From NCBI RefSeq assembly GCF_046105845.1, contig NZ_CP151004.1: DNA of 64,000 nucleotides, one strand, 5' to 3'. Each line of letters starts with the position of its first letter. Positions within the stretch are counted from its first letter, which is position 1. A program made the position numbers and the translations under genes. This DNA is from Escherichia coli (lineage in GTDB: Bacteria; Pseudomonadota; Gammaproteobacteria; Enterobacterales; Enterobacteriaceae). Below, piece by piece: positions 55,586-61,201 of this stretch. The notes under the pieces were generated by a model. The model worked only from the letters and a program-made list of their open reading frames with translations, made no database searches and was not told the origin of the DNA.

Positions 55586-57010
55586 ATGACCAAAAAACTC
55601 CATATTAAAACCTGGGGCTGTCAGATGAACGAGTACGATTCATCGAAGATGGCCGATCTGCTGGATGCCACCCACGGCTATCAACTGACCGACGTGGCGG
55701 AAGAAGCGGATGTGCTGCTGCTGAACACCTGCTCAATCCGCGAGAAGGCTCAGGAAAAAGTCTTCCATCAGTTGGGTCGCTGGAAACTGTTAAAAGAGAA
55801 GAATCCAGACCTGATTATCGGTGTCGGCGGCTGCGTGGCATCGCAGGAAGGCGAGCACATTCGCCAGCGCGCCCACTATGTCGATATTATTTTTGGGCCG
55901 CAAACGCTGCACCGCCTGCCGGAGATGATCAACTCCGTGCGCGGCGACCGCAGCCCGGTTGTAGATATCAGCTTCCCGGAAATCGAGAAGTTTGACCGTC
56001 TGCCGGAACCGCGCGCCGAAGGGCCGACCGCGTTTGTCTCCATCATGGAAGGCTGCAATAAATATTGCACCTACTGCGTGGTACCTTACACCCGTGGTGA
56101 AGAGGTAAGCCGTCCGTCCGACGATATTCTGTTTGAGATTGCCCAGCTTGCGGCTCAGGGCGTGCGTGAAGTCAACCTGCTCGGTCAGAACGTGAACGCC
56201 TGGCGTGGTGAAAACTACGACGGCACCACCGGAACGTTTGCCGATCTGCTGCGTCTGGTTGCGGCGATCGACGGGATCGATCGTATTCGCTTTACCACCA
56301 GCCATCCGATCGAATTCACCGACGATATCATCGAAGTGTACCGCGACACGCCGGAGCTGGTGAGCTTCCTGCACCTGCCGGTACAGAGCGGTTCCGATCG
56401 CATTCTGAACCTGATGGGCCGTACTCATACGGCGCTGGAGTATAAAGCGATCATCCGTAAACTGCGTGCGGCGCGTCCGGATATTCAGATCAGTTCTGAC
56501 TTCATTGTTGGCTTCCCTGGCGAAACCACCGAAGACTTCGAGAAAACGATGAAGCTGATTGCCGACGTCAATTTCGACATGAGCTACAGCTTTATCTTCT
56601 CTGCACGTCCGGGTACACCAGCCGCCGATATGGTTGATGATGTTCCGGAAGAAGAGAAGAAGCAGCGTCTGTATATTCTGCAAGAACGTATCAATCAGCA
56701 AGCGATGGCATGGAGCCGCCGGATGCTCGGCACCACCCAGCGTATTCTGGTAGAAGGGACTTCGCGTAAGAGCATCATGGAGCTTTCCGGGCGTACCGAA
56801 AATAACCGCGTGGTCAACTTCGAGGGCACACCGGATATGATCGGTAAATTCGTCGATGTAGAAATTACCGACGTCTACCCGAACTCTCTGCGCGGTAAAG
56901 TGGTGCGTACTGAAGATGAAATGGGGCTGCGCGTGGCAGAAACACCAGAATCGGTCATTGCCCGTACCCGCAAAGAAAACGACCTTGGCGTGGGTTATTA
57001 TCAGCCGTAA
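55586..57010 (+). CDS. miaB: tRNA-i6A37 methylthiotransferase (radical SAM)
   Basis: 474-aa [40 protein letters not shown]... with CxxxCxxC (CNKYCTYC). Confidence 0.97.
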
Positions 57011-57036
57011 TTCTCAGGCCCGCCGTTCCGGTGGGC
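57006..57036 (+). terminator. Rho-independent terminator / attenuator after miaB
   Basis: AGGCCCGCCG-ttc-CGGTGGGCCT 10-bp stem followed by TGTTTTTT. Confidence 0.7.
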
Positions 57037-57054
57037 CTTGTTTTTTCTCTCTTT
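57027..57054 (+). promoter_or_regulatory. Candidate sigma32 (heat-shock) promoter for ybeZ-ybeY-corC-lnt
   Basis: CTTGttt (-35-like), a 13-nt spacer, then CCCCATCT (-10-like, consensus CCCCATnT), about 110 bp upstream of the ybeZ start. Confidence 0.5.
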
Positions 57055-57162
57055 ATCCCCATCTTTATCGCAATGCTTGCGCCTTTTTCCTGTGGCGTGA
57101 ATAATTTCCTTATAGGCCGGTGAATGTTCAGCTTCCGGCGGCATACAGATAAGAGGAACGGT

Positions 57163-58203
57163 TTGAACATAGACACTCGCGAAATCACCCTGGAGCCAGC
57201 AGACAACGCGCGTCTGTTGAGCCTGTGCGGCCCGTTTGATGACAACATCAAACAACTCGAACGCCGTCTCGGCATCGAAATCAATCGCCGCGATAACCAC
57301 TTTAAACTGACCGGCCGTCCGATTTGCGTCACCGCTGCGGCAGACATTCTGCGTAGCCTGTATGTCGATACTGCCCCGATGCGCGGTCAGATTCAGGATA
57401 TTGAACCGGAACAGATCCACCTTGCGATTAAAGAAGCGCGGGTACTGGAGCAAAGCGCGGAGAGCGTGCCGGAGTACGGCAAAGCGGTCAATATCAAAAC
57501 CAAACGCGGCGTAATCAAGCCGCGCACGCCAAACCAGGCGCAGTACATCGCCAATATTCTCGACCATGACATTACCTTCGGCGTTGGCCCGGCGGGTACG
57601 GGTAAAACCTACCTGGCAGTGGCTGCAGCAGTTGATGCCCTGGAGCGTCAGGAAATTCGCCGTATTCTGCTGACTCGTCCGGCGGTAGAAGCCGGTGAGA
57701 AACTGGGCTTCCTGCCTGGCGATTTAAGCCAGAAAGTAGATCCGTATCTGCGCCCGCTGTACGACGCGCTGTTTGAAATGCTGGGCTTTGAGAAAGTCGA
57801 GAAACTGATTGAGCGCAACGTTATTGAAGTCGCGCCGCTGGCCTATATGCGTGGCCGTACGCTGAACGACGCGTTTATCATTCTCGATGAAAGCCAGAAC
57901 ACCACCATCGAACAGATGAAGATGTTCCTGACCCGTATCGGTTTTAACTCAAAAGCGGTTATCACCGGCGACGTCACGCAGATCGACCTGCCGCGTAATA
58001 CTAAATCAGGCTTACGTCATGCCATCGAAGTGCTGGCTGACGTCGAAGAGATCAGCTTTAACTTCTTCCACAGCGAAGACGTGGTTCGTCACCCGGTGGT
58101 GGCGCGTATCGTTAACGCTTATGAAGCCTGGGAAGAAGCAGAACAAAAACGTAAAGCGGCGCTGGCAGCAGAACGCAAGCGCGAAGAACAGGAACAAAAA
58201 TGA
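57163..58203 (+). CDS. ybeZ: PhoH-like ATPase YbeZ
   Basis: Start assigned to TTG at 57163 (346 aa, ..[18 protein letters not shown]..) with an AGAGGA RBS; an in-frame ATG at 57124 is the alternative. Walker A GPAGTGKT. Confidence 0.9.
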
Positions 58204-58667
58204 GTCAGGTGATCCTCGATTTACAACTGGCATGTGAAGATAATTCCGGGTTACCGGAAGAGAGCCAGTTTCAAACATGGCTGAATGCAGTGATCCCGCA
58301 GTTTCAGGAAGAGTCGGAAGTGACTATTCGCGTGGTCGATACCGCCGAAAGCCACAGTCTGAATCTGACCTATCGCGGTAAGGATAAGCCGACCAACGTG
58401 CTCTCCTTCCCGTTTGAAGTGCCGCCTGGCATGGAAATGTCGCTACTGGGCGATCTGGTTATCTGCCGTCAGGTGGTTGAGAAGGAAGCACAGGAGCAAG
58501 GCAAACCACTGGAGGCGCACTGGGCGCATATGGTGGTGCACGGCAGTCTGCATTTGTTAGGTTACGATCACATCGAAGATGACGAAGCAGAAGAAATGGA
58601 AGCCATCGAAACAGAGATTATGCTTGCTCTGGGCTATGAGGATCCGTACATTGCCGAGAAAGAATAA
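58200..58667 (+). CDS. ybeY: Endoribonuclease YbeY (16S rRNA 3'-end maturation)
   Basis: 155-aa ORF with the H-x-x-x-H-x-x-G-x-x-H metal motif ([11 protein letters not shown]). Confidence 0.96.
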
Positions 58668-58756
58668 TTTGCCAGGCATTTGACTGGCAGACGTCCCCGC
58701 CGTTGGTGATTAACGACGGCGTTTTGATTAACTAACATGAGAACCCATACGACGCC

Positions 58757-59635
58757 ATGAGCGACGACAATTCACACAGTAGTGACACGATAAGCAACAA
58801 GAAGGGATTTTTCTCCCTGTTACTCAGCCAACTTTTCCACGGTGAACCGAAAAACCGTGACGAACTGCTGGCGCTGATCCGTGATTCCGGGCAGAACGAC
58901 CTTATCGACGAAGATACGCGCGATATGCTCGAAGGGGTGATGGACATCGCAGACCAACGCGTCCGCGACATCATGATCCCCCGCTCCCAGATGATTACCC
59001 TGAAACGCAACCAGACGCTGGACGAATGCCTTGATGTCATCATCGAGTCCGCCCACTCACGTTTCCCGGTGATTAGCGAAGACAAAGATCACATTGAAGG
59101 GATTCTGATGGCGAAAGACTTGCTGCCGTTTATGCGCAGCGATGCTGAAGCCTTCAGCATGGACAAAGTGTTACGTCAGGCAGTTGTCGTTCCTGAAAGT
59201 AAGCGCGTAGACCGGATGCTGAAAGAGTTTCGCTCTCAGCGTTACCACATGGCGATCGTCATTGACGAATTCGGTGGGGTTTCCGGTCTGGTGACCATTG
59301 AAGACATCCTGGAACTGATTGTTGGTGAGATTGAAGACGAGTATGACGAAGAAGATGATATCGACTTCCGTCAGCTGAGTCGTCATACCTGGACCGTGCG
59401 CGCACTGGCTTCCATTGAAGACTTCAACGAGGCGTTCGGCACCCACTTTAGCGATGAAGAGGTCGACACTATCGGTGGTCTGGTGATGCAGGCATTTGGG
59501 CATCTTCCGGCGCGTGGTGAAACCATCGACATCGACGGTTACCAGTTCAAAGTGGCGATGGCCGACAGTCGGCGTATTATTCAGGTTCATGTCAAAATTC
59601 CGGATGACTCACCCCAGCCAAAGCTGGATGAATAA
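58757..59635 (+). CDS. corC: Mg2+/Co2+ efflux protein CorC (CBS-pair plus CorC_HlyC domains)
   Basis: 292-aa [48 protein letters not shown]... Confidence 0.95.
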
Positions 59636-59659: not shown

Positions 59660-61201
59660 ATGGCTTTTGCCTCATTAATTGAACGCCAGCGCATTCGCCT
59701 GCTGCTGGCGTTATTATTCGGTGCCTGCGGAACGCTGGCCTTCTCTCCTTACGATGTCTGGCCTGCGGCGATTATTTCGCTGATGGGGCTTCAGGCGCTG
59801 ACCTTTAACCGCCGTCCACTCCAGTCTGCCGCTATTGGCTTTTGCTGGGGATTTGGCCTCTTTGGCAGCGGTATTAACTGGGTCTATGTCAGCATCGCGA
59901 CTTTTGGCGGAATGCCTGGCCCGGTTAACATCTTCCTGGTGGTGCTGCTGGCGGCGTATTTGTCGCTGTATACCGGACTGTTTGCTGGCGTGCTGTCGCG
60001 CCTGTGGCCGAAAACCACCTGGCTGCGCGTGGCGATTGCCGCCCCTGCTCTCTGGCAAGTGACCGAGTTTCTGCGCGGTTGGGTGCTGACTGGTTTCCCG
60101 TGGTTACAGTTCGGCTATAGCCAGATTGATGGCCCGTTAAAAGGGCTGGCACCAATAATGGGCGTGGAAGCCATTAACTTCCTGCTAATGATGGTTAGCG
60201 GCCTGCTGGCACTGGCGTTGGTCAAACGCAACTGGCGTCCGCTGGCGGTGGCCGTCGTGCTGTTCGCCCTTCCCTTCCCGCTGCGTTACATCCAGTGGTT
60301 TACCCCGCAACCGGAGAAAACCATTCAGGTTTCGATGGTTCAGGGCGATATTCCGCAATCACTGAAATGGGACGGAGACCAGCTTCTTAATACGCTGAAG
60401 ATTTACTACAACGCAACGGCACCGCTGATGGGCAAATCATCGTTGATTATCTGGCCGGAGTCGGCGATAACCGATCTGGAAATTAATCAGCAACCGTTCC
60501 TCAAAGCACTGGACGGTGAGTTGCGCGATAAAGGTAGCTCGCTGGTAACCGGGATTGTTGACGCGCGTCTCAATAAGCAGAACCGCTACGATACTTACAA
60601 CACCATCATCACGCTGGGGAAAGGTGCGCCGTACAGCTACGAATCAGCCGATCGCTATAACAAAAACCATCTGGTGCCGTTTGGCGAGTTTGTCCCGCTG
60701 GAGTCGATTCTGCGTCCGTTAGCGCCGTTCTTTGATCTGCCGATGTCGTCGTTCAGCCGTGGGCCATATATCCAGCCACCGCTGTCGGTAAACGGTATTG
60801 AGCTTACTGCGGCTATTTGCTACGAGATCATTCTCGGCGAGCAAGTGCGTGATAACTTCCGCCCGGATACCGATTATCTGCTGACTATCTCCAACGATGC
60901 ATGGTTTGGTAAGTCTATTGGTCCATGGCAGCACTTCCAGATGGCGCGAATGCGTGCGCTGGAGTTGGCGCGCCCGCTACTGCGTAGCACCAACAACGGC
61001 ATTACGGCGGTGATTGGTCCGCAGGGTGAGATTCAGGCGATGATCCCGCAATTCACCCGCGAGGTGTTAACCACTAACGTGACGCCGACTACCGGACTTA
61101 CACCGTACGCACGTACCGGCAACTGGCCTCTGTGGGTGCTGACGGCACTGTTTGGTTTTGCTGCTGTGCTGATGAGTCTGCGTCAGCGACGTAAACGTTG
61201 A
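59660..61201 (+). CDS. lnt: Apolipoprotein N-acyltransferase
   Basis: 513-aa [50 protein letters not shown]...; C-terminal nitrilase-like domain. Confidence 0.96.

Follow-up and report, generated by a model that had tools for sequence, protein, structure and literature searches.

Two well-described systems bear directly on the locus analysed here, and both come from Escherichia coli K-12. The first is the textbook sigma-32 promoter, dnaK P1, which has the layout CTTGATG-N13-CCCCATTT-7 nt-A (PMC3923258 S4). The second is ybeZp, the promoter of ybeZ-ybeY-ybeX-lnt, which RegulonDB, as given in the S2 Table of Shimada et al. 2017 (PMC5493296), records as an RpoH promoter on the reverse strand with its start at 692692 (U00096.2). 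The RegulonDB evidence codes for ybeZp include transcription initiation mapping and a direct assay (PMC5493296). The start at 692692 is also listed by Cho et al. 2014 (PMC3923258 S4), who print a 51-nt sequence covering -50 to +1 and ending ...CCCCATCTTTATTGCA and who assign the start to sigma D, S and H. In that data set it is represented by 9 reads, all from the stationary-phase sample, and is absent from the list for heat shock at 50 C. Because the filter used by Cho et al. dropped any start below 40% of the strongest start of the same gene, this absence is weak negative evidence.

Binding of sigma-32 at the locus has been described as well. In ChIP-chip carried out 5 min after heat shock, with the signal of unshocked cells subtracted, ybeZ gave a log2 value of 2.5, which is among the top signals in the table of that study (Waldminghaus and Skarstad 2010, PMC2996942). 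A second ChIP study includes ybeZ among the sites that Wade et al. had reported as well. The ChIP region SigH_66 (691780-693667) spans the spacer between miaB and ybeZ, alongside SigD, SigS and RNAP regions (PMC3923258). In genomic SELEX with the RpoH holoenzyme alone, ybeZp was placed in the 'not identified' class (PMC5493296). Nonaka et al. 2006 (Genes Dev 20:1776) is cited in several papers for sigma-32 control of ybeZ, ybeY and ybeX, and one of these papers cites the same work for an induction of YbeY of more than 4-fold at 42 C. A literature search on the name 'ybeZp' returned no match. The promoter, its sigma factor, its start and the 3' end of the preceding terminator, described below, are already known for E. 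coli K-12.

The window, i.e., the whole stretch of 64,000 nucleotides of E. coli DNA analysed here, carries the same locus on its plus strand. The miaB coding sequence (55586-57010, 474 aa, stop codon TAA at 57008-57010) was identified from the list of open reading frames, a match to the TIGR01574 MiaB equivalog (738.9 bits) and the RefSeq annotation of the corresponding stretch in E. coli. After a spacer of 152 nt it is followed by ybeZ, encoding a PhoH-like ATPase (57163-58203, 346 aa from the TTG start of RefSeq K-12; PhoH family match), by ybeY, encoding an rRNA maturation RNase (58200-58667; TIGR00043, 156.5 bits, cut-off 45), the start of which overlaps the ybeZ stop, by corC, also called ybeX, encoding a CNNM-family Mg/Co transport protein (58757-59635; NF011675, 645.4 bits), and by lnt, encoding apolipoprotein N-acyltransferase (59660-61201; TIGR00546, 409.8 bits). 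These assignments, which rest on NCBIfam equivalogs for miaB, YbeY, CorC and Lnt and on the PhoH family for the second gene, agree with the gene names proposed in an earlier note on this DNA. A longer open reading frame for ybeZ begins at ATG 57124.

The region 56900-57200 is found at 95-99.3% identity in 5424 of 5426 complete E. coli genomes, where RefSeq annotates it as miaB and ybeZ. Within it, positions 57011-57115 have at least 99% identity in 4150 of the 5424 matching genomes and at least 95% in all but one of them, and several E. coli strains are 100% identical. Only 57028 and 57069 distinguish the spacer from that of K-12 MG1655, both outside the promoter elements, and 57029-57068, which contains both elements of the sigma-32 promoter, is identical. 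Published K-12 coordinates were carried from U00096.2 to NC_000913.3 with an offset of 777, which was calibrated on published starts (32 of 36 fall on a purine, versus 10-19 at other offsets). On the basis of this offset and the printed sequences, 692692 corresponds to A57072 of the window and 692652, a second start of Cho et al., to A57112.

A stem-loop lies 6 nt downstream of the miaB stop codon (57016-57038; AGGCCCGCCG-TTC-CGGTGGGCCT in the scan), with a 10-bp stem, 8 of the 10 pairs being G-C, and a 3-nt loop. Directly 3' of the stem is a T-run, TGTTTTTT (57039-57046), which has 7 T in 8 bases and a G at its second position. The hairpin folds with -19.7 kcal/mol (z = -3.9), and none of 200 dinucleotide shuffles was equally stable. 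Across 23 Enterobacteriaceae the stem covaries: none of its 8 consensus pairs is broken, and 5 show compensatory double changes. Term-seq of K-12 lists, together with the flanking bases, a miaB 3' end of the class 'primary' at 693499(-) of NC_000913.3 (Adams et al. 2021, PMC7815308). Through the K-12 alignment this end falls on window position 57042, which is the second T after the G of the U-tract and lies inside the sigma-32 -35 heptamer. In addition, Cho et al. 2014 (PMC3923258) list miaB as a transcription unit of its own. The prediction that hairpin and U-tract form a Rho-independent terminator of miaB, which the earlier note had also made, is therefore supported by the sequence anatomy together with the published K-12 3' end.

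Other candidates around the hairpin were set aside. A bidirectional terminator was rejected because the stem, read on the complementary strand, leads into GAGAATTACGG and not into a T-run. Rfam gave nothing above threshold in 56800-57300; its only match there, to suhB/mmgR over the terminator, had 19.5 bits (gathering score 41, E = 0.13) and was dismissed as noise resembling a terminator. The supplements of Adams et al. (PMC7815308) contain no 3' end for ybeZ, ybeY, ybeX or corC, which leaves a hairpin between ybeY and corC without support.

Overlapping the terminator is the sequence CTTGTTT-N13-CCCCATCT, worded in the earlier note exactly as it reads in the DNA. The -10 element, CCCCATCT (57057-57064), matches all 7 specified bases of the sigma-32 consensus CCCCATNT. 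The -35 element, CTTGTTT (57037-57043), matches the consensus CTTGAAA at 4 of 7 bases, keeping the CTTG core with GTTT in place of GAAA. C57037 pairs within the end of the terminator stem, and the remainder of the heptamer runs into the U-tract. The spacer between the two elements is 13 nt (57044-57056), within the 13-14 nt of known sigma-32 promoters, and in relatives it is 12-14 nt. With both strands of the 64-kb window counted, there is a single CTTG-N16-CCCCATNT, versus 0.02 occurrences expected. The looser pattern CTTG-N14-18-CCCCAT is expected 0.71 times in the window and is not rare on its own; what makes the match strong is the complete 8-mer in combination with exact spacing and position.

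The mapped K-12 start, A57072 (692692 in U00096.2, as in RegulonDB and Cho et al., and 693469 in NC_000913.3), is located 8 nt past the last base of CCCCATCT, so that 7 nt separate +1 from the -10 element, within the 6-9 nt expected of a sigma-32 promoter. The comparison with mapped sigma-32 promoters that the earlier note had suggested as a check leads to RegulonDB ybeZp itself. Induction of the start at 57072 by heat or sigma-32 is reported at second hand. The coordinates of the earlier note were about 10 nt short on the 3' side. The features it described at 57006-57054 are present, but the -10 element lies outside that range; its hairpin and U-run at 57006-57036 are real as a structure but are displaced from their actual position; and the start it expected about 7 nt past 57054, near 57061, is wrong as placed, but with the slip corrected moves to about 57071-57072, where the published start is found. 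The 5' leader (57072-57185) was also considered as an RNA thermometer, and this was rejected, as its fold is no better than that of shuffles (z = +0.66).

A second promoter, P2, occupies 57077-57105 on the plus strand, with the -35 element TTGCGC (57077-57082), a 17-nt spacer and the -10 element AATAAT (57100-57105). TTGCGC-17-AATAAT is unique in the window, with 0.01 expected. A scan of the spacer for the sigma-70 consensus at a threshold of 9 of 12 returned nothing; P2 scores 8/12 and was recognised only through its conservation and its position ahead of the published start at 692652 (A57112). That start was detected with 206 reads, the samples being exponential, stationary, glutamine and heat shock, its printed sequence ends ...GTGAATAATTTCCTTA, and Cho et al. 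assign it to sigma-70/sigma-S (PMC3923258). A SELEX peak of the RpoS holoenzyme at 692668 (Shimada et al.) lies within the spacer and fits P2. In a published array of wild type versus delta-rpoS, ybeZ, ybeY and ybeX fall in the mutant, whereas miaB and lnt do not; for ybeZ the signal goes from about 12.0 to 9.1-9.6 log2, an approximately 6-fold drop, which fits P2 as well.

The decrease of all three genes in delta-rpoS implies that much of the expression of the operon is not driven by sigma-32. The sigma-32 promoter is not the only basis for the independence of the operon from miaB, and P2 is the more heavily used of the two promoters. The earlier proposal that the downstream genes can be expressed independently of miaB is supported, but it omitted P2, and it counted lnt with the group although lnt does not track ybeZ, ybeY and ybeX in the delta-rpoS array. 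Because the start of ybeZp is weak and not listed for the heat sample, there is no RpoH SELEX peak and the -35 match is limited to CTTG, the data point to ybeZp as a modest supplement to P2 and not the main driver. None of these contrary points is strong enough to override the conservation, the heat-specific ChIP signal or the mapped start.

Conservation was assessed at 80 Enterobacterales loci obtained by a YbeZ scan of one genome per species. In 76 of these, miaB is directly upstream of ybeZ. Allowing up to two mismatches, CTTG-N15-17-CCCCATNT occurs in 59 of the 70 spacers from Enterobacterales, versus 9.9% of shuffles; with at most one mismatch the figures are 23 of 70 and 0.7%, respectively. 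The motif usually lies approximately 113-166 nt upstream of ybeZ. In the Morganellaceae, where the spacer is 33-52 nt, neither signal was found.

A footprint alignment of 42 species of Enterobacteriaceae, Erwiniaceae and Pectobacteriaceae resolves both promoters. Its invariant columns are TTG at 57038-57040, T57044, C57057, C57058, A57061, T57064, TTG at 57077-57079 and AATA.T at 57100-57103 and 57105. Fifteen of these 16 columns belong to the -35 and -10 elements of the two promoters. The exception, T57044, opens the spacer immediately 3' of the sigma-32 -35 element, and bases between the elements change freely. C57037 of the CTTG core is kept in at least 90% of the 42 species. In relatives the -35 element reads CTTG[CT][AT]TT, and the departure from AAA is thus itself conserved and is not forced by the overlap with the terminator. 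The stem adjoins CTTG only in Enterobacteriaceae, in which CTTG follows the miaB stop codon by 26-29 nt. In other families, such as Erwiniaceae and Pectobacteriaceae, the hairpin is located approximately 20 nt further upstream, and the promoter motif is still present.

Taken together, these results are best explained by three signals packed head to tail in the spacer, namely the miaB terminator, the overlapping sigma-32 promoter ybeZp and, downstream of it, the sigma-70/sigma-S promoter P2, a reading to which we give a probability of roughly nine in ten. In this arrangement the Rho-independent terminator (57016-57038 and the U-tract) would end most miaB transcripts near 57042. The sigma-32 (RpoH) holoenzyme would bind ybeZp, whose -35 element is written over the last base of the stem and the U-tract, and start RNA at A57072, and P2 would start RNA at A57112. 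The overlap should cost nothing because the terminator acts in RNA and the promoter in DNA. The expected effect is to uncouple ybeZ-ybeY-corC(-lnt) from miaB. We infer a division of labour in which P2 would provide basal and stationary-phase expression and ybeZp would add sigma-32-dependent expression when heat shock raises sigma-32.

The overlap of terminator and -35 element itself probably has no special role. To judge from the arrangement in Erwiniaceae and Pectobacteriaceae, which keep the two signals approximately 20 nt apart, the fusion seen in Enterobacteriaceae appears to be a derived state. It could in principle have been selected and not have arisen by accident, for example if polymerase released at the terminator were handed straight to the overlapping promoter, or if sigma-32 holoenzyme on the -35 element acted as a roadblock that tightened miaB termination in heat shock; we regard selection of this kind as highly improbable.

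Three other explanations of the data were weighed against the combination of terminator, ybeZp and P2. CTTG...CCCCATCT might be a by-product of a U-tract next to a C-rich spacer, with all ybeZ RNA coming from P2 or from read-through of miaB. The imbalance between P2 (206 reads in four conditions, heat shock among them) and the sigma-32 start (9 reads in one) would agree with this, as would the lack of an RpoH SELEX peak at ybeZp and the fact that the looser motif is not rare by chance. Nevertheless, the mapped start lies precisely as far from the -10 element as expected, sigma-32 ChIP signal after heat shock has been obtained in two studies, and TTG and CC..A..T are invariant across three families while the sequence between them has been replaced. 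Moreover, the elements are kept in Erwiniaceae, and since the motif persists where the hairpin sits about 20 nt upstream, it is not a by-product of the terminator. Such an origin is therefore extremely unlikely. Alternatively, the promoter at 57037-57064 could be genuine but used chiefly by sigma-S or sigma-70 in stationary phase, with sigma-32 as a minor user. We consider this distinctly unlikely, given that the RegulonDB evidence for RpoH includes a direct assay and that CCCCATCT lacks a hexamer resembling TATAAT at the appropriate distance. The observations that speak for it are that 692692 was seen only in stationary phase and was assigned to D, S and H, that the ChIP regions SigS_159 and SigD_270 cover the spacer (PMC3923258), that ybeZ is about 6-fold lower in delta-rpoS and that RpoS has its SELEX peak at 692668. 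However, ChIP-chip and SELEX cannot resolve promoters 40 nt apart, and P2 explains all of the sigma-70 and sigma-S signals.

The hairpin, for its part, could be a stabilising 3' stem that stops exonucleases on processed miaB-ybeZ read-through RNA and not a site of termination. The 3' end at 57042 is just 4 nt past the stem, whereas 7-9 nt is usual, and a G interrupts the U-tract, both of which would be compatible with processing. However, a few terminal U residues are commonly trimmed after termination. The anatomy is that of a canonical hairpin and T-run with a covarying stem, the 3' end was classed as 'primary' by Adams et al. (PMC7815308), and miaB is a separate unit in Cho et al. (PMC3923258). 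A purely stabilising stem is accordingly very unlikely, and a terminator followed by ybeZp and P2 remains the preferred reading.

The heat-shock promoter of the ybeZ operon is real, conserved and ordinary. As a known E. coli feature in E. coli DNA it carries little weight as a discovery. It is useful as a calibration, in that a true sigma-32 promoter and an intrinsic terminator could be recognised from raw sequence, with a slip of 10 nt in the coordinates. The mapped start, the sigma-32 ChIP signal after heat shock, the Term-seq 3' end and the regulon membership of ybeZ, ybeY and ybeX come from the literature; the sequence features, their rarity, the identity with K-12, the base-level placing of the published ends, the conservation and the covariation come from the present analysis. 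What is added here is that the published 5' and 3' ends are placed to the base on the window sequence, that two tandem promoters are resolved whose four elements account for 15 of 16 invariant columns over three Enterobacterales families, and that the overlap of terminator and -35 element is specific to Enterobacteriaceae.

Compared with the known systems, the locus departs little from expectation. With the Rho-independent terminators of E. coli, the miaB terminator shares a G+C-rich 10-bp stem, a 3-nt loop, an adjoining T-run that contains the mapped RNA 3' end, and a stop codon 6 nt upstream; it differs from them in that its U-tract, TGTTTTTT, has a G at position 2 and in that the same DNA doubles as a -35 element. 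Relative to K-12, ybeZp of the window is the same locus with no difference of substance: at 57028, in the terminator stem, the window has C and forms a G-C pair where K-12 has T and forms a G-U pair, and at 57069, between the sigma-32 -10 element and the start, the window has C and K-12 has T. Relative to dnaK P1, ybeZp (CTTGTTT-N13-CCCCATCT-7 nt-A) has the same CTTG-N16-CCCCAT geometry, but dnaK P1 is represented by 103 reads in stationary, glutamine and heat samples (PMC3923258), compared with the 9 reads of ybeZp in one sample, and ybeZp has a second promoter behind it, 40 nt further downstream.

Besides the sigma-32 promoter, the spacer between miaB and ybeZ contains a second promoter of the ybeZ operon, P2 (TTGCGC-17-AATAAT, start A57112; window 57077-57112, plus strand), which was identified from a published transcription start and from conservation. 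Its start lies 40 nt 3' of the sigma-32 start, was represented by 206 reads and seen in all four conditions of a genome-wide 5'-end survey of K-12, and has been assigned to sigma-70/sigma-S (PMC3923258). The TTG and AATA.T of P2 are invariant across 42 Enterobacterales species.

The position of P2 also bears on where translation of ybeZ begins. The longest open reading frame starts at ATG 57124 and encodes 359 amino acids, and the RefSeq K-12 start is TTG 57163, giving 346 amino acids, with AAGAGGAA 5' of the TTG. Because a transcript from P2 would give ATG 57124 a leader of only 12 nt with no ribosome-binding site, the evidence favours TTG 57163 over ATG 57124 as the start codon.

Further signals have been published for this region. 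The same 5'-end survey placed an additional end, at 693281 (U00096.2; window about 56483, within the miaB coding sequence), in the ybeZ unit; this end had 20 reads, in stationary phase only, and a transcript from this position would have to cross the miaB terminator by read-through to reach ybeZ. Reg-Seq reported one new repressor-type binding site, with no named protein, at the K-12 ybeZ promoter (window 57037-57112; PMC7567609). Two minus-strand open reading frames of 130 and 188 amino acids (window 56955-57347 and 57001-57567, respectively) overlap the spacer and the ybeZ start and are probably spurious.

Downstream, the start codon of ybeY overlaps the stop codon of ybeZ (ATGA, window 58200-58203), an arrangement also noted in PMC5995498 that suggests translational coupling of the two genes. 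The gap from the ybeY stop at 58667 to the corC start at 58757 holds a G+C-rich hairpin of 8 bp followed by TTTTGATT (window 58698-58721), which may attenuate or terminate transcription within the operon. The published supplementary 3'-end lists searched contain no Term-seq 3' end for ybeY or ybeX (corC). A transcription start in the ybeY-corC interval is mentioned in one paper.

The spacer itself varies in length among relatives. The distance from the miaB stop to the promoter CTTG, 26-29 nt in relatives, is 201 nt in E. albertii (locus L004, 1173-1375) and 118 nt in C. youngae (locus L013, 1256-1375), where the extra sequence resembles a REP element (gccggatggcggc, complementary strand). In Xenorhabdus, Photorhabdus, Moellerella and Proteus (L070, L074, L076, L078, L079, L081), the entire miaB-ybeZ spacer is only 33-52 nt, and both the terminator and the sigma-32-like motif are absent from it; ybeZ of Morganellaceae is probably co-transcribed with miaB or has its promoter inside miaB. 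Spacers of 636-1234 nt, long enough to hold an inserted gene, occur in Serratia (L054, L057, L061) and Rosenbergiella (L069, L077), and despite this length Rosenbergiella keeps the sigma-32-like motif about 134 nt 5' of ybeZ.
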